Shown piece by piece: positions 16,192 to 62,330 of a stretch of DNA of 64,000 nucleotides. A program made the translations under genes and the position numbers. The first letter of the stretch is position 1. The number at the start of each line of letters is the position of its first letter. Location of the stretch: positions 352,001 to 416,000 of the forward strand of contig CBDAOY010000006.1 of assembly GCA_965198225.1 (NCBI GenBank). Direction: 5' to 3'. Below the pieces are notes generated by a model. It had not been told where the DNA came from. It ran no database searches and saw only the letters and a program-made list of their open reading frames with translations. The DNA comes from Terriglobia bacterium (GTDB lineage Bacteria > Acidobacteriota > Terriglobia > 20CM-2-55-15).

Positions 16192-16260
16192 GTAAGTGCG
16201 CTCTATGAGCGCACAAATTCTTGCTGAACCATCAGTTGTGCGGTCATAGACCGCACCTAC
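16192..16260. repeat. GTAG-family REP doublet (REPIN)
   Basis: gtaagtgcgctctatgagcgcac ... gtgcggtcatagaccgcacctac in inverted orientation. Confidence 0.85.
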
Positions 16261-54587: not shown

Positions 54588-55271
54588 GCGTGTTAACACT
54601 AATGAGCATGAATGTTTTATAATCAGGCATGGAGATCACACAGGAGCAGTATTGTCGCATCGAGCCGGAACTGCCGCGTCAGCGGGGCAACGTCAGTCTT
54701 TCGAACCTGACGGTCTTGAACGCCATTTTGTATGTGGCTGAGCAGGGCTGCAAGTGGCGCGGTCTGCCCAAGCGCTTTGGCAACTGGCACACCATCTACA
54801 CCCGGATGAACCGCTGGTCCAAGAACGGGGTGCTCGACGCCGTCTTCGAAAAACTCCAGCGCGAGCAACTGGTGCGCATCCGGGTGGAAGCCGTTTCGAT
54901 GGACTCGACCATTGTGAAGGTGCATCCCGACGGCACAGGAGCGTTAAAAAAAACGGTCCGCAAGCGATCGGCAAATCCCGCGGTGGATGGACCACCAAGA
55001 TTCATCTGGTTGCCGCGAACGCTCGAACGGCGATAACGTTTGCGCTCTCGCCCGGCCAAGCGCACGACGCCCCGCAGGGCCGCGAGCTGCTCGCCGGCCT
55101 GGGGCCGTTGCCCGCGCCGCTGCCGCTGCTGATGGACCGTGCCTACCAGGACGACCAGACCCGCCAATTGGCTCTGGATTTTGGGTGGATTCCCGTCGTG
55201 CCGCCCAAGCGCAACCGCTTGGAGCCGTGGGAATACGACCGCGTTCTCTACCGCCGCAGGAACGAAGTCGA
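54588..55271 (+). mobile_element. IS5 family (IS427-like) element, right end missing; transposase orfA/orfB with A8 frameshift site
   Basis: Left end gcgtgttaacacta; orfA 54629 (GCKWRGLP..FGNWHTIY.R..RW, DSTIVKVH); A8 at 54946-54953; orfB IGKSRGGWTTKIH, MDRAY, YRRRNEV, then breaks. Confidence 0.88.
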
Positions 55272-55737
55272 CCTGACGCCGTTCATACGCTGGCTCACGA
55301 TCGACAAGAAAATCGTAAAACCCGGCGACACGATTCGCGGCCAGGCGATGGTCGAAGACCCCGCCGGAGTCGCACGCTTCGCCGTGGCGTTCCAGGGACC
55401 GATGGGCCGCCGGACGACGATGCGCATGTCGTTCACGCCGCGAGCCAACAACAAGTCGCTGTTCGACGGGACGCTGACGATCCCGAAATGGATCGAACCG
55501 GGGCGGTACCTGCCCTACGACATGGCGCTGGGTAACGTTCTGGGCCACTTGAAGGGGTATTTCCCGGAATACGTTCCGGCGACGAGGAACCTGGTGCTGG
55601 AGGTCCTTCCCAGTACCGATGCCGATGTCATGCCCCCGACGCTGGAGGAATTTGGCATCGGCGCACCGGGTGAATCCACGGCCGATGGCGTAGCACAGTC
55701 CTATGACATTTCCGAATCCGTGATGGTGTGGGCGAAG
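55272..55737 (+). pseudogene. Internal fragment of an unrelated beta-rich protein fused in frame to the IS5 transposase
   Basis: Open frame with host-like codon usage (KIVKPGDTIRG..VEDPAGV..GTLTIPKWIEPGRY..DVMPPTL), truncated at both ends. Confidence 0.5.
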
Positions 55738-56234
55738 CTGTGGCCCGTCCTCAGCAGCCGATGAACGCGCCTGATTGCGTCATGCGCGTCTCGGCCCGGC
55801 CGGTACGCATACTGCTCCGGTTGCAGGTCGGCTTCGAAGATCGGCGATAACACCAGCATCGCCGCCGTCTGCACCACCCGATCCCGGAGACACGGAATGC
55901 CCAACGGCCGGAACTTCCCTCGTTGCTTCTTCGGGATGAGAACCTGCCGAACCGCATGCGGCCGATAGGTCCCTTCCTTCAGGTCCCGCGCCAGTGCTCC
56001 CAGCCACCGGTCTACCCCAAGCGCCTCGATGTCTCCGACCGTCTCGCCGTCCACCCCGGCCGCGCCGCCGTTGCGGCGCACGGCCTGCCAGGCGACTGCG
56101 AGCACGTCGTCGCGCCACACCTTGTCGCTCAGAGAGTAGAACCGGAAGCCCAGAGCTTCCTTCGCTTTCGCATGTAGCGCCGTCTGGAGTCGCTGAACTC
56201 TCTCCGAGGCTGTTAGGCTCTCGCCAGTCCTCAT
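55737..56234 (-). pseudogene. ltrA: Group II intron reverse transcriptase/maturase, N-terminal fragment (RT0-RT2)
   Basis: RFYSLSDKV, NGGAAGVDG, IPK..RPLGIP..DRVVQ, PIFE..YAYRPGR; breaks before RT3; SD ggagg before ATG 56234. Confidence 0.9.
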
Positions 56235-56308
56235 GTCCCTTCCTCCGTCATGCGCTGCTCTCGAACTGAGGTCCCTTCCCTCCACCGGCATTACCCGGCT
56301 TCCCTGGT

Positions 56309-58055
56309 GTAGAGTCGAAAGTGGTCGGGCTGGTCTGCCCTTCCACCGTCCGCTCAATCAAACGGCTCGTGCGGTTTTCCCGCAAGCCGCTTTCCTCAGT
56401 TGCTCCTCGCACGGAGTCACCGGTCCACGAGACCGGGAATCAGATGCGTCAGTCGGACCAGACCGAACTCTCGAATAAGTCGTCGCGTCGGATAACGGCG
56501 CCACATCGTATTTCTCCACCGTTTCGCGAGAAACGAGTAGATACGGCGCTCAATCCAACGGTCCAGCTCGTTGAAGAGTCGGCGCACCCTCGCTTTGCGG
56601 TAATAGTTCCCCCAGCCCCGAATCACCGGGTTGAGCTGGTCGATGACTTCGCCCAGCTTCAGGGGAGCCTTACGGCGCGAGAGGTGTCGGATTTGCGTCC
56701 GGAACCTCTCGACCGACTTTTCCCGTGGAATGGCATACAGGTTATGGGGGTGCATTCCGCGACCACGCCTCTGTGTATCGGACAGACGCAGTCCTTTCCC
56801 TTGTTTCACCTTGTACCCCAAGAACTCAAAGCCTTGTCGAACGTGTACAATCCGCGTCTTCTTCGGATGAAGTCGAACTCCAAGTTCCTCCCAGAGAAAC
56901 CGCTCTGCAAATGCGAGCGCCTGCCGGGCTTGGGCCGGTGTCCTACAAACCACCACAAAGTCGTCCGCCCAGCGTGTGAGTCTTGACCTTGCCGGGTCAT
57001 CGCACGGTCAAACGGCGTCAGAAAGATGTTCGACCACAACGGACTGGCCACTCCCCCTTGGGGAACTCCCGTCCGCGTGGGTTGCCAGCAACCTCCTTCC
57101 AATACCCCCGAACCCAGGATTGCCCGGATCAGCCCCAGAACTCGGCCGTCGCTGATCTCTTCGGCGATCAAGTCGAGAAGCTTCTCCTGGTCGATCGTGT
57201 CAAAGAACTGCCGTAGGTCAGCATCAACCACCCAGAGGTCTCCGGCGCCTAGCTCTGCCCAGACTTTCCGCATCGCATCATGGGGTGAACGCCCCTTGCG
57301 ATACCCGAATGAGCAGTCCAGAAACAACGGCTCGAAGATTGGTTCCATCCGCTGGACCAGCGCCTGCTGACAGACCCGATCCATTACGGCCGGTATCCCC
57401 AGCTTTCGCATTCCTCCGTCGGACTTCCCGATCTCGACTCGCTTTACCGGCTTGGGTCGATAGGTGTCATCCCGCAGCTTTTGATGCAACAAGGCCAGAT
57501 ACTCCTCCTTGCGCCTTTCAAACTGCTCAATGGTCACTTCGTCGATGCCCGCGCTACCTCGGTTCCGTTTCACTTTCTCCCAGGCCAACTCCAGATTCTT
57601 GCGACTAAACACCTTGTCGATCAGCGAGTGGACCTTTCGCTTCCTTCCCTGTCTGCTTTCCAATGTCGCTGTGGGGCGGCGGGCGGCGGCTTCATCCGTA
57701 CCGCGTTTGGGTCTTTCACTAAAGGAACTATCCAAGTTCACGATATCTCCGCGTTTCCCATCGCTCGCACATTCACAACTGAGTACGGGGACTTCCCCCT
57801 CCAGCGGGCCTTTTGAACCCACCAGCGCCGCTGCTCGAAGCAACGATCCGAAACCTTATGTTTGCCGTCTCGTTCCTGAGTGTAATCTCGACCTTACCTT
57901 CCGCCCGGACGATACCAGGCCTCCCTGGGTCACTCGCGTCTCTTCTCCACCGTGTCGCCCGCACACACCTTGGTGCGATGGGGTGGAACCAATGCGCCTT
58001 CGCCCCCATAGTGCGGGCTCGACCATTCCCCATCTTTGGTGGGGTCTGAAGGGCA
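56309..58055 (-). mobile_element. Inner group II intron, 5' end deleted, inserted in the outer intron
   Basis: D5 AAGCGGCTTGCGGGAAAACCGCACGAGCCGTTTG and D6 ending ..CGACTCTAC at 56309; no GTGYG 5' end is visible before the junction at ~58055 (approximate). Confidence 0.82.
56417..57843 (-). pseudogene. ltrA: Inner intron RT/maturase (WADD active site), frameshift near 56985, no endonuclease domain
   Basis: HSLIDKV, LGIP..DRVCQ, VVDADL..FFD, GVPQGG..SP, then in another frame LTRWADDFVV, FEFLGY, NPVIRGWGNYY. True start is probably downstream of 57843. Confidence 0.9.
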
Positions 58056-58547
58056 TGAGGAGAACCGCCACCGGCAGGGCTTCCCGTGTTGCGTCCATCC
58101 CCCCCTTCCACACGTGCCGCCGCTACTACCCCGGCGGAACCGGTCGGTGCTCGCGTCGCTCGCTTCCCGACCGCTGGCAGCCTTCCCCGTATTCCGGGCG
58201 GATCGGCTTCCGCATCGCTTCGTTCCGAGGCCTGCGCAGCGTTCACATCGTTGCGGCCCGCGTGGTCGCTGAACCGCCCAGGGCGGCCCTTTGTCATCGG
58301 AGTGCTTCAGCCGATGTCGTTACCTCCATCGTCCGCTCCGACTGCTACCGGCTGGAGCGACAGTTGCCGGGCGGGGTTCGCAGAATGTTGGGAGCTCGGA
58401 TATGTTGGGGCCCGGTGTAAGTACTTGTCAGTATTGAACTGCTAGGCCAGACCTCCCAACATAACTTCACGACGCTTTTGGGACGCGTAAGTTGGGGGGA
58501 CGACAGATTTCGCCCATGGTAGAGCCTCTTTCAAGGAGGTTCTCACC

Positions 58548-59771
58548 ATGTTCGAGACACTGTTTTCTGCCGAGCGTGTCTTACGCCGGCATCGGGACGG
58601 CCCGCTCGCCGCACAGCGCGCCGCCTACCTGCAGGACCTGGTGTCCTGCGGATTGGCTCCCAGCACGCTCCGGGTCCGGGCTAGGCACTGCCTCCGGATA
58701 GCGACAAGCCTAAGCACCTGGCCGCCTGACCACTTGTTCTCTACGGACGAGGTAGCGGCGCTGGATACTCGCCGCCTTGCGTCTGGAAAGGCTCTCCGCC
58801 CACCGGTCGATGGCTTCCGCTCCACTGCGCTGGAATTGCTCAGCAGTCTGGGGCGGCTGCGCACGGACCCTCCGTGCGAGCACGACGACAAGCTGAATGC
58901 CTTCATCGCCTTCCAGCGCGAAACCAGTTGGCAGTCAGAGGAAACGTGCCTGATGGCGCGCCCGCGGATCCAGCGATTCCTAAACTACCTGCACCAGCGG
59001 GGTGTGGTCCTGGACGCTGTGTCGCCCGCAGACATCGATGGCTTTTTCGAGGAGATGGCTCAGGTCTGGAGTCGCAAGTCGTTAGCCACAGCCGCTTGGG
59101 CAATCCGTAAGTGGCTGCACTACAGCGGCCGACGCGGCTGGGCTCGACCCGGACTGGACGCGGCAGTCTTGGTGCCGCGTCTGTACTGCCGCGAGGGGCT
59201 GCCACTCGGACCCACCTGGGACACGGTTTCGCGCATGCTTGCCGCCACCGAGGGGGACGATCCTGCGGCGATCCGCGACCACGCGATCCTGCTGTTGCTC
59301 TCGGTCTATGGCGTGCGCTCGGGCGAAGTGCGCCGACTGCGCCTTGACGACATCGACTGGACCGGGAACCGGATCACGTTCGAGCGGTCCAAGAGCCACC
59401 GCCGGGACTTGCTCCCGTTGCATCCTCTGGTCGGCGAAGCGATTGCCCGCTACTTGTCACAATCCCGGCCCCGGACGGACAGCCGGATTGTCTTCCTCCG
59501 GGTACGTCCCCCGCACACGCCGCTCACCACCTGCGCGCTCCACGCCATCGTTGACCACTGCTATCCGGAAGCGGAAAGGCCGTCACGGGGACGGGGCCCG
59601 CACGGGCTGAGACACGCGTGCGCCCGTCATCTCGTCGAGGCTGGTCACAGCTTCAAGGAAGTGGGTGACCACCTCGGCCATCGCAGTCCCGACAGCGCTG
59701 GAATCTACGCGAAGGTGGATCTGCGCTCGCTGCGCCAAGTGGCGCCGGACGATCTCGGGGGCTTGGCATGA
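58548..59771 (+). CDS. ritA: Tyrosine recombinase RitA
   Basis: YGVRSGEV, GPHGLRH, LGH..IYAKVD; SD aggagg. Confidence 0.92.
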   Translation: MFETLFSAERVLRRHRDGPLAAQRAAYLQDLVSCGLAPSTLRVRARHCLRIATSLSTWPPDHLFSTDEVAALDTRRLASGKALRPPVDGFRSTALELLSSLGRLRTDPPCEHDDKLNAFIAFQRETSWQSEETCLMARPRIQRFLNYLHQRGVVLDAVSPADIDGFFEEMAQVWSRKSLATAAWAIRKWLHYSGRRGWARPGLDAAVLVPRLYCREGLPLGPTWDTVSRMLAATEGDDPAAIRDHAILLLLSVYGVRSGEVRRLRLDDIDWTGNRITFERSKSHRRDLLPLHPLVGEAIARYLSQSRPRTDSRIVFLRVRPPHTPLTTCALHAIVDHCYPEAERPSRGRGPHGLRHACARHLVEAGHSFKEVGDHLGHRSPDSAGIYAKVDLRSLRQVAPDDLGGLA

Positions 59772-60715
59772 CGCTCGCCACTGCCGTCGATTCGTACGTT
59801 TCCGCGAAGCGCTCGCGTGGAGCGATTTACGAACGAGAGGGCCCCATCCTGCTCTCCTTCGTGCGCGCAACAGGCGACATCCCCGTCGGGGAGGTCTCCT
59901 ACGAACAGGCTCGGGCATTCTGTTCGGGCTCCGGCCCGGCCACCCGCTGGCAGGTGCACAAGCACAGCACACTCCGAACATTCTTCAAGCATCTCGTTGG
60001 CCGAGGGCACTTGAGCGCGTCACCCCTACCGGATCCGCCGCCACGCATCCGCTCCACCTTCAAGCCGTACATCTACTCCCGCGAGGAAATCCAGCACCTG
60101 CTCGATGCGACCGCAATCTTGCGCGACCGCCGTTGTCCGCTCCGCCCGGAGACCTTTCGCACCTTGCTGCTGCTGCTCTACGGCACTGGTCTGCGCCCAG
60201 GCGAGGCCCGACGCCTGCGGCTCTGCGATGCGGATCTCGACGACCGCATCCTCACCGTCTGGAACACGAAGTTCTTCAAATCGCGCTTGGTCCCGTTTGG
60301 CGCTTCCCTGCGGGATGTCTTGCGAGCTTACCGCGAGATCCGGCTGGCCCTGCCACTTCCCTCTGGCGATCGCTCGGCCTTCTTCGCCACAGCGGGCGGC
60401 AAGACGCTGTCCGCCGACTCTCTGTCTTCGGGATTTGCCCGCATGAGGAAGCGCGCCGGCATCCGCAATCCGCAGAATCGCCTCCAGCACCGCCTGCAGG
60501 ACGTCCGGCACACATTCGCCACCGGCCGACTCCTTCACTGGTACCGCGAAGGGGTCGATGTCCAAGCCCGCCTGCCTTGGCTGGCGACTTACCTCGGTCA
60601 CGCGGACCTGTCCGGTACCCAAGCCTACCTGACGATGACACCCGACCTGCTCGCCGAGGCCTCGCTGCGCTTTCAGCGCTTTGCCGAATCCTTGGCCCAA
60701 GGAGACGCTTCATGA
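59768..60715 (+). CDS. ritB: Tyrosine recombinase RitB
   Basis: TGLRPGEA, TKFFKSRLVP, RHTFA, LATYLGH..TQAYL; ATGA overlap. Confidence 0.92.
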   Translation: MTLATAVDSYVSAKRSRGAIYEREGPILLSFVRATGDIPVGEVSYEQARAFCSGSGPATRWQVHKHSTLRTFFKHLVGRGHLSASPLPDPPPRIRSTFKPYIYSREEIQHLLDATAILRDRRCPLRPETFRTLLLLLYGTGLRPGEARRLRLCDADLDDRILTVWNTKFFKSRLVPFGASLRDVLRAYREIRLALPLPSGDRSAFFATAGGKTLSADSLSSGFARMRKRAGIRNPQNRLQHRLQDVRHTFATGRLLHWYREGVDVQARLPWLATYLGHADLSGTQAYLTMTPDLLAEASLRFQRFAESLAQGDAS

Positions 60716-61725
60716 CATCCAAGCACCTGATCGGTCCGTTCGTCCGGCGCTTCCTGCTCGAGGAAGTCGTACAGGATCGCAACCTCAGCCCGCACACCCG
60801 CAAGAGCTACCGCGACAGCCTCAAACTGCTGTTCGCCTTCCTCGCCGAGCGCCACCGAACCGACCCCACGCGCGTCACTGTCGAGCAGGTCGACGCCACA
60901 CTCGTACGCGAGTTCCTGAGCGACCTCGAAGGACGCCGTGGCAACTCCGTTGCCACCCGCAATCAGCGCCTGGCAGCCTTGCGTTCTCTGTTCCGCTTCA
61001 TCGCGCGTCTCGCCCCGGAACTGGTGGATCAGGCCGCGCAAGTCCGGACCATCCCGGCACGCAAGACCCCGGTTCCCGTCATCCCTTACCTGGACAAGCC
61101 TGAAATCGAGGCCTTGCTCGCCGTCCCGGATCGGGCCACGGTCCAGGGCCGCCGGGACTACGCCGTGCTACTCCTGATGTACAACACAGGCGCTCGGGCC
61201 AGCGAGGCGGCCGGACTTTCTCTGGCCGACCTGAGCCTGCACGGCTCGCCCTCCGCGCGATTCGTCGGCAAGGGCGGCAGGCACCGTCTCTGCCCGCTCT
61301 GGCCCCGCACCGTCGGGGTCTTGCGCGAGGTCCTCGGCGAGCGTCTCGACGGCCCGCCCCAGACCCCTGTCTTCGTCGGCCAGCGTGGCCTGCCGCTCAC
61401 GCGCTTTGGCATTTACGAACTCGTGTGCCGCATCGCGCAAAAGGCTGCGCAAACCACGCCTTCGCTTCGAACCAAGCGGGTCAGCCCCCACACCCTGAGA
61501 CACACCACCGCAGTCCACCTGCTCCAAGCTGGCGTCGATATCAATACGATCCGTGCCTGGCTTGGGCACGTCTCTCTGGAAACGACCCACCGCTACGCAG
61601 AGGTCGACTTGGAGATGAAGGCGCGCGCCCTGCGTACATGCGCCAGCAACATTCCTGAACCGGCCCCTGTCGCCCCGAGTTGGCACAACGATTCGGACCT
61701 ACTGGCCTTCCTCTCGGCTCTTTAG
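60712..61725 (+). CDS. ritC: Tyrosine recombinase RitC
   Basis: SPHTRKSYRD, TRNQRLAA, YNTGARASE, SPHTLRH, LGHVSLETTHRYAEVD; ATG 60712 in an ATGA overlap. Confidence 0.92.
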   Translation: MTSKHLIGPFVRRFLLEEVVQDRNLSPHTRKSYRDSLKLLFAFLAERHRTDPTRVTVEQVDATLVREFLSDLEGRRGNSVATRNQRLAALRSLFRFIARLAPELVDQAAQVRTIPARKTPVPVIPYLDKPEIEALLAVPDRATVQGRRDYAVLLLMYNTGARASEAAGLSLADLSLHGSPSARFVGKGGRHRLCPLWPRTVGVLREVLGERLDGPPQTPVFVGQRGLPLTRFGIYELVCRIAQKAAQTTPSLRTKRVSPHTLRHTTAVHLLQAGVDINTIRAWLGHVSLETTHRYAEVDLEMKARALRTCASNIPEPAPVAPSWHNDSDLLAFLSAL

Positions 61726-61910
61726 GCCTTGAGCAAAATTATGTTGGGGGATTTGGCAAGTGAGTCAGTGGTTGCAATCACTTACACCGGACCCCCAACA
61801 TATCCGAGTTCCCAACATTCTGCGAATCATGTTGGTGCCAACATGATTCGCACCCGCTGGGGAATGGCGCCTTTCACGGCGCACCGGAACCTGAACGCTA
61901 AATGAAAGCT

Positions 61911-61964
61911 GTGCGGTCATAGACCGCACCTACACCTAAAGGGGCGGCCGTACGGCCGCCCTTT
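61911..61964. repeat. REP followed by a bidirectional-terminator-like hairpin
   Basis: gtgcggtcatagaccgcacctac, then aaaggggcggccgtacggccgcccttt. Confidence 0.7.
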
Positions 61965-62058: not shown

Positions 62059-62255
62059 CAAGCTGTGAACGAATGCCTGTTTGAGAATCGGGTGGCGGGG
62101 CTTTTCATGAAGAACCTGCGATCCTCAAGTGTAGGTGCGCTCTATGAGCGCACAAATACCAGCGGGACCACAAAGTTGTGCGGTCATAGACCGCACCTAC
62201 ACGTGAAAAGCCCCGTCACCCGATTTTCCGTTCCCATAATTCGTTCACAGCTTCG
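62059..62255. mobile_element. ~198-bp MITE (family B, copy 2), inverted relative to copy 1, inserted at the TA of a REP
   Basis: gcgctcaTA[caagctgtgaacgaat...attcgttcacagcttcg]TAgagcgcacctac; internal REPIN. Confidence 0.85.
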
Positions 62256-62330
62256 TAGAGCGCACCTACACCCGGCCGTGAAGTTTCGCGGTTCGAAGAA
62301 TGTGCGGTCATAGACCGCACATTCAATCAC

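Follow-up and report, generated by a model that had tools for sequence, protein, structure and literature searches.

A RIT element in the loop of a group II intron domain I hairpin, and intron domain V as a recurrent insertion site of related RIT elements

RIT elements carry a trio of tyrosine recombinase genes, ritA, ritB and ritC. Van Houdt et al. described the plasmid pHG1 as rich in RITs, and the cited parts of that work give their ends as a 28-29 bp inverted repeat with an overlapping palindrome (PMC3414803). According to the cited parts of two further sources, RIT movement has never been reproduced in the laboratory and its target specificity is entered as 'not tested' in Table 1 of the first (PMC10214605), while circular forms were not found in the second, a mobilome study (PMC5737581). 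The same cited material states that in Tn554, the strand-biased circularizing elements (SE) and the GInt islands 6 bp of the old flank travel with the element (PMC10214605). Our literature search returned no paper linking RITs or tyrosine recombinases to group II introns; supplementary insertion-site tables lay outside this search and could bear on novelty. Here we analyze a RIT element and its host intron in one stretch of DNA, the window, which comprises 64,000 nt of a Terriglobia bacterium (GCA_965198225.1, contig CBDAOY010000006.1, positions 352,001-416,000, forward strand). The source genome, labelled G000, has nine contigs, denoted by C-numbers. We describe the insertion with its empty site, the anatomy of the element, the targets of its relatives and their phylogeny, and from these we argue that the RIT probably entered the intron by site-specific recombination in the loop of a domain I hairpin.

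Deletion of positions 58383-61852 (3,470 bp) makes the 5' end of the outer group II intron contiguous again and leaves a single copy of the 6-bp core. This was the central claim of an earlier sequence-only reading of the window; it is borne out to the base, and all of its coordinates hold. The intron lies on the minus strand and starts with GTGCG at 61884. That reading had also proposed a search of the genome for RIT-free copies of the intron, and two of them were found on one contig, C5:762050 (minus) and C5:810698 (plus). In both copies the 32-nt 5' piece is joined to the piece that follows the RIT in the window, giving ...CAGCGGG TGCGAA CCCCGCC..., which is exactly the predicted empty site. 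The presence of this site in two sister introns speaks for mobility of the element as a unit. The RIT itself occurs once in the genome, so there is no second filled site.

The outer intron is recognized in the window by its 5' end, by the match to the Rfam model RF02003 (group II D1-D4-4) and by a partial reverse transcriptase (RT) gene. The RF02003 match, on the minus strand, is the sole Rfam match in the window at the gathering score; the interrupted copy scores 65.7 bits versus 80.9 bits for an intact sister copy. One of the RIT-free C5 copies is a full intron of ~1.9 kb with a complete RT+X open reading frame, and its domain V/VI region scores 39.3 bits with RF00029 (gathering score 40). 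Homology of the window copy to this full intron breaks off at 55740, after ~165 RT codons, and domains V and VI are missing. As judged from its sequence, the host copy is dead, being truncated at the 3' side and devoid of most of the RT gene, domain V and domain VI.

The hairpin that received the RIT, GCGGG/UGCGAAC/CCCGC, occupies intron nt 28-44 with a 7-nt loop and is present in the minimum-free-energy fold of the first 70 nt. Eight more intron copies in this genome, belonging to three subtypes, retain it; in one of them (C8:1286825) a compensatory change, GTGGG...CCCAC, preserves it. The Rfam consensus has complementary letters at this position but does not mark them as paired. The placement of the RIT in the loop of a GCGGG/CCCGC hairpin near the 5' splice site, as first read from the letters of the window, was confirmed, with the core at intron nt 33-38 (Table 1).

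Like the insertion itself, the claimed completeness of the element withstood scrutiny: the three rit genes are intact, its ends match each other, and it has spacer, palindrome and core of the RIT type. Consecutive rit genes overlap by the 4-bp ATGA, within the 4-8 bp expected of RITs, all three products belong to Pfam PF00589, and the Arg, His-x-x-Arg and Tyr motifs were located by eye in each of them. Their lengths of 407, 315 and 337 aa agree with the ~315-410 aa of Rit proteins (PMC10214605). From the sequence, RitA has ~125 extra N-terminal residues. RitC shares 51% identity, across 93% of its length, with a copy on C. necator H16 pHG1 (NC_005241.1). NCBIfam contains no RIT-specific model, and the Rit proteins gave only Xer-like matches below its cut-off. 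The 44/47 identity of the ends as inverted repeats includes the core. Each end carries two outer ATGTTGG boxes and one inner box of opposite sense, and the end palindrome adds two more boxes. Together with the cores that flank it, this palindrome forms a 32-bp palindrome at 61821-61852, 30/32 of which is self-complementary.

Table 1. Features of the RIT insertion and of its host intron (window positions)
Feature	Position	Strand	Evidence or comment
Outer intron nt 418-986, including first ~165 RT codons (RT start 56232)	55740..56309	-	99.8% identity to C5 copy; Pfam RVT_1, partial
Inner group II intron, 5' side rearranged	56310..58065	-	Pfam RVT_1 and GIIM; domain V from 56392; 3' end ...CTAC at 56310
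Outer intron nt 39-349 (domain I)	58066..58376	-	RF02003 at 58246-58387, 65.7 bits; 99.7% identity to C5 copies
Left-junction core, TTCGCA	58377..58382	.	Sequence reading
RIT left end, with two outer ATGTTGG boxes (58385, 58402) and one inner inverted box (58456)	58383..58547	+	Sequence reading
ritA, tyrosine recombinase of 407 aa with long N-terminal part	58548..59771	+	Pfam Phage_integrase, 1.9e-24
ritB, tyrosine recombinase of 315 aa	59768..60715	+	Pfam Phage_integrase, 2.3e-19
ritC, tyrosine recombinase of 337 aa	60712..61725	+	Pfam Phage_integrase, 4.4e-30, and SAM-like N domain
RIT right end, with one inner box (61741) and two outer CCAACAT boxes (61795, 61812)	61726..61820	+	44/47 identical to left end, inverted
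Inner spacer TGCGAA, exact reverse complement of both outer cores	61821..61826	.	With adjoining boxes, a full box-6-box site
20-bp end palindrome: two ATGTTGG boxes, 2-nt centre	61827..61846	.	Same layout on relatives' sides
Right-junction core, TTCGCA on plus strand, TGCGAA in intron sense; intron nt 33-38, hairpin loop	61847..61852	.	Direct repeat of 58377-58382
Outer intron nt 1-32, severed by the RIT	61853..61884	-	Identical to first 32 nt of two RIT-free C5 copies

Altogether we collected 93 related loci, of which 13 came from a scan of a genome collection with RitB and 80 from a metagenome scan with RitC, the latter being the best 80 of 427 relatives. The closest RitC among these genomic and metagenomic relatives (best 80 of 427 for the metagenomes) is 68-69% identical to that of the window. 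When RitA was compared with 401 genomes of the phylum, the best match, at 59% identity, was found in a genome labelled G200, whose element is the one nearer relative obtained. The RIT DNA had no match in the genomes of 60 relatives, and no close relatives were found among the viral contigs searched. The related RITs were placed in Syntrophobacteraceae, Thermoguttaceae, Terriglobia, Anaerolineae, Myxococcales and others. They share a common end layout, seen on 49 element sides, that runs from an outer box through a 6-nt spacer, a 20-bp palindrome and a 6-nt core to the flank. The palindrome has the format 8+4+8 in relatives and 9+2+9 in the window element. Spacer and core are exact reverse complements on 28 of the 49 sides.

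The flanks of many of these relatives point to introns. Of the 93 loci, 41 have one half of an intron domain V immediately adjoining the RIT end or the palindrome (read by eye on the flanks; L028 and L081 are weak). A regular expression recovered 35 of these 41 loci, and its five further matches, at wrong offsets, were discarded. In a stricter test anchored on the last box, 21 + 18 of 113 sides had a domain V half, compared with 0.45 + 0.34 expected at random places in the same loci. The arrangement of the two halves is regular: the 5' strand of domain V (...RAGCCG followed by a core such as GATGCG) abuts the terminal repeat, while the rest of domain V (GGAAA..CCGC....CCGG.T) and domain VI stand after the palindrome. 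Both domain V halves are present at six loci (L026, L029, L031, L041, L045 and L071), and in all six the removal of the element, the palindrome and one core yields a 34-nt domain V hairpin with the AGC triad and a 2-nt bulge, followed by domain VI ending in ...CTAC. Among the relatives, the gene trio is found in either orientation with respect to domain V. Intron RT genes were detected in the flanks of 17 of the 93 loci (tblastn with two intron RT proteins of G000), and in nine domain V loci the end of the RT gene is closely followed by the half hairpin. An Rfam scan (E up to 1) of 12 related RIT flanks for a split domain V gave no intron match; since the Rfam model is blind to half hairpins, the domain V sites were rebuilt by script.

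Domain V is not the only target found. Six loci of a more distant clade (L065, L070, L091, L092, L106 and L112) lie at the Leu-Gly codons of an FLG motif in intron RT genes, and the tblastn match to the intron RT stops at the same residue in three of them. The other 46 loci have flanks of other kinds or unreadable ones. At 20 loci with other flanks Rfam gave no intron RNA at the gathering score, and hence no further domain I case. The check that the sequence-only reading had proposed, whether the flanks of homologs are intron 5' ends, therefore turned up many insertions at intron domain V but no second one in domain I. That reading had also held that homologs at unrelated sites sharing only TTCGCA would mark the insertion as a chance event; what we found instead were other cores at other conserved sites. 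Judging from the flanks, every RIT clade seems to be tied to a conserved target of its own within other mobile elements.

Two further observations were made on the flanks. For three sets of loci from other RIT clades (L079, L080 and L088; L082, L101, L102 and L104; L078 and L083), our own translation of the flanks suggests positions inside tyrosine recombinase genes, DUF1016-like genes and insertion sequence (IS) transposase genes. Some contigs have the same part of domain V on both sides: the palindrome and the 3' part in L032, L040 and L089 (also L063), and the 5' strand without the palindrome in L048, L054 and L107 (also L027). For L107, L089 and L032, one flank is an inverted copy of the other. 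Such contigs could result from real inversion between RIT sites or from chimeric assembly across the inverted ends.

The phylogeny places the window element among RITs that target domain V. In a RitC tree of 86 rows it falls in a 32-row group (SH-aLRT 94, below the 95 star line) in which 28 rows were labelled as domain V insertions; the flank of L038 was also read as domain V after this labelling. In a tree of concatenated RitABC proteins with 49 rows, the window element and the G200 element are sisters (SH-aLRT 100), with 64% identity over the three proteins, and both belong to a clade of 22 rows, of which 19 are domain V insertions. The G200 element (L154, G200:C1:4635500-4644500) has the core TACCTC and its palindrome on the ritA side. 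Its insertion divides a DDE transposase gene cleanly: one flank matches Pfam PF13701 over positions 4-170, the opposite flank over 169-434. The window element shows neither the GATGCG-like core nor the domain V 5' strand of the clade and sits in domain I with the core TGCGAA. This sub-lineage is nested in the domain V clade, yet one of its members occupies domain I and the other a transposase gene, so it has left domain V; by the trees and the flanks, it did so either twice, or once with another change of target thereafter.

We propose a mechanism in which the element would excise as a circle. The junction of this circle would bring together two inverted box-6-box sites flanking the small palindrome, and one of these sites would then exchange strands with a target that holds the same 6-bp core. 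After such an exchange the core would be directly repeated, one junction would carry the palindrome, and the spacer within the element would be inverted. The core direct repeat, inverted spacer and palindrome seen in the window are what the circle model expects, and the occurrence of both trio orientations at domain V is likewise predicted by it. Under this proposal, RIT lineages would be strictly site-specific for conserved sequences of other mobile elements. The large clade from which the window element descends would have its attachment site in the DNA of the catalytic hairpin (domain V, core GATGCG), and the sub-lineage of the window element would have changed targets. Spacers unlike the current core may stem from a previous site, in the manner of Tn554 and SE, or may have arisen by mutation. 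More speculatively, the three recombinases might divide among themselves the boxes of the element and the two unlike arms of the target, which would explain the constancy of the trio. The likely benefit to the element is that intron DNA would offer a harmless, multi-copy and horizontally spreading landing pad.

Contigs from three public runs (X1, X3 and X8) match the RIT interior at ~98-99% and end within the terminal repeats; one 93-nt contig of X1 spans 61781-61873 with 8 differences. Skips of 3,470 nt in the public runs were considered as traces of excision and rejected: they have only 29-41 nt per side and could derive from RIT-free intron copies, so that these runs say nothing about excision or circles.

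We consider it probable that the intact, single-copy RIT entered the outer intron by conservative site-specific recombination at TGCGAA in the loop of the domain I hairpin. Whether this hairpin served as a preferred site, rather than for a one-off event, has to be judged from several features. In its favor, the inner spacer agrees with the target core at 6/6 positions, the target arms are inverted around a 6-bp loop as in a classical recombinase core site, and the relatives are strictly site-specific. Moreover, only 10 of the 2,727 TGCGAA sites in the genome (~0.4%) belong to this hairpin, the occupied copy being counted twice in the 2,727, once per junction. A number of observations weigh against it or against the proposed entry as a whole. 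No second RIT insertion in the domain I hairpin was found among the related loci. Nine identical or near-identical hairpins in the same genome are all without a RIT, and a search of 60 relatives showed more RIT-free intron 5' ends. Neither a circle nor an excision product was observed, and the sister element in G200 occupies an unrelated target, a transposase gene with the core TACCTC. On 21 of the 49 relatives' sides the spacer differs from the core by 1-6 letters, so core identity is not strictly required. Finally, the same domain V half on both sides of the element (L032, L040 and L089; L048, L054 and L107) is unpredicted by the proposed model. We infer a preferred site with caution, and a dedicated attachment site in domain I remains a tentative reading to which we give somewhat less than an even chance. 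The earlier idea of a ribozyme hairpin as attachment site holds at the family level (domain V in 41/93 loci, 6/6 rebuilt); for domain I it meets a single insertion.

The simplest alternative is a one-off integration that needed only the 6-bp core, with the hairpin context being coincidental. It would account for the single copy without a replicate insertion, for the nine empty hairpins left unused and for the unrelated site of the sister element. We regard it as improbable, because so small a fraction of the core sites lies in this hairpin and because all related lineages that were examined occupy conserved positions in mobile elements and are not scattered. Rather less probable is an off-target integration by an element that prefers domain V, into a domain I hairpin that resembles it. 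The nesting of the element in the domain V clade would fit such an event, as would the pattern AGC.GG.TGCG.AA.CCGC, which by eye the hairpin shares with the domain V 5' strand and loop. This likeness is not special, given that the hairpin is at edit distance 6 from the domain V 21-mer and that 4,455 other genome sites are equally close. At distance <=3 there are 31 sites, mostly intron domain V copies, and all of them are unoccupied. The element's own inner spacer is TGCGAA and not the CGCATC/GATGCG of the clade, and its palindrome lies on the opposite side of the target when compared with the domain V insertions.

Large inserts in terminal hairpin loops can be tolerated by ribozymes, and a loop of this kind could therefore let a RIT travel inside the intron RNA and spread by intron retrohoming. 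We think this very unlikely for the window element. Its host copy lacks most of the RT gene, domain V and domain VI; the RIT-bearing form is found once and RIT-free copies many times; and no intron copies at different homing sites with a RIT at the same position were found. The relatives split domain V or the RT gene, and intron copies broken in this way should be immobile on their own. Of the two relationships suggested by the sequence-only reading, safe harbor and hitch-hiking, the dead host and the intron-breaking insertions of the relatives make the latter unlikely, and the former fits better. Beyond site-specific entry into the hairpin loop, which we prefer, the data allow a wider picture in which RITs would be dedicated hyperparasites with lineage-specific attachment sites, domain V would be the target of a cross-phylum clade, the window element would have jumped to a true attachment site in domain I, and the trio would split its work between boxes and target arms. 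As a whole we hold this picture to be possible but rather doubtful, a little more so than the dedicated domain I site taken by itself.

The host intron carries a second intron, which the sequence-only reading had also noted. It is a real group II intron, but not a clean insertion. It lies between nt 349 and 418 of the outer intron and replaces 68 nt of it. Relative to a full copy at C5:501705-503653 (RF00029 scores 37 bits on C5:501705-503287), it is without 137 nt, and it begins with a 28-nt inverted segment. Its RT/maturase gene (57843-56417) has a 1-nt deletion near 56983. The family of this inner intron has ~20 copies in the genome, mostly without a reading frame (G000 C5:813156-814098, C5:62158-63804, C6:840376-841977 and others); some copies are tandem, and they are often found inside other introns. 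The description of the locus as a three-level nesting has to be revised, because the RIT and the inner intron are each lodged separately in a single dead intron.

Several features were noted around the outer intron. A long open frame at 54754-55764 on the plus strand combines a fragment of an IS5-like DDE transposase (Pfam DDE_Tnp_1, residues 74-155) with a C-terminal part unrelated to it. This frame extends into the outer intron where the latter is truncated, so the junction there represents another rearrangement. A REP-like palindromic repeat of 19 bp (GTGCGGTCATAGACCGCAC) is present 171 times in the genome. In the window it occurs at 61911-61929, 62178-62196 and 62302-62320, and also at 16238 and 35687. 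Three copies stand directly upstream of the 5' exon of the intron, where the number of units varies among contigs of the public runs. A sister subfamily of the outer intron (C5:826007, C4:145605 and C5:610219) homes to ...TTATGT(T/C)(G/T)TATTTCAAC, a sequence that is similar to the RIT boxes but shows no box pairs in the genome. The sequence TTATGTTG in the 5' exons of the sister subfamily was considered for its resemblance to the RIT boxes and was rejected: no box pairs exist in the genome, and these exons are ordinary homing sites.

RITs span many bacterial phyla, and the present locus supplies a base-exact pair of filled and empty sites. Together with about 40 related domain V insertions, it provides defined attachment sites, a 6-bp crossover core and a conserved end architecture, all of which are substrates for direct tests of the mechanism. 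The 41 of 93 related loci counted at the catalytic hairpin of such introns give the RIT family defined landing sites. The insertions also reveal an unrecognized pressure on group II introns, exerted by a family of DNA transposons whose homing targets are the most highly conserved RNA-coding parts of these introns and whose insertion disrupts the copies concerned.

The use of a structural hairpin by a mobile element has known counterparts. The integron integrase acts on folded attC hairpins, and group IIC introns use attC or terminator hairpins. As in these systems, a Xer-like tyrosine recombinase meets a hairpin site at our locus, and one mobile element uses the structural hairpin of another. 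Unlike in integrons, there is no evidence here of single-stranded substrates, and the protein-coding motifs targeted by other RIT clades do not form obvious hairpins. Twintrons such as TeI3/TeI4 of Thermosynechococcus likewise involve a mobile element specialized to the interior of a group II intron, and the inner intron of the window is of that kind. The RIT differs from them in being a DNA recombinase element and not a retroelement, and it cannot be spliced out.

Among tyrosine recombinase systems, Tn554, SE and the GInt islands resemble RITs as multi-recombinase transposons with a 6-bp core, as far as the cited parts of their description go (PMC10214605). The RIT spacers that differ from the core (21/49 sides) could be a memory of the old flank of the Tn554/SE type. 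In contrast to these elements as described there, RITs lack a counterpart of Tfp/GinC or TnpC, and a terminal palindrome such as that of RITs is absent from Tn554, SE and GInt. The closest match is to the RITs of Cupriavidus metallidurans CH34 and C. necator pHG1, with which the window element shares, by the cited parts of their account, the overlapping ritA-ritB-ritC genes, the size of ~3.5 kb, the inverted repeats with an overlapping palindrome and insertion into genes of other mobile elements (PMC3414803). The cited parts of the CH34 and pHG1 accounts contain no attachment site, whereas a 6-bp core in an intron hairpin is seen here, along with recurrent intron targets in the relatives.

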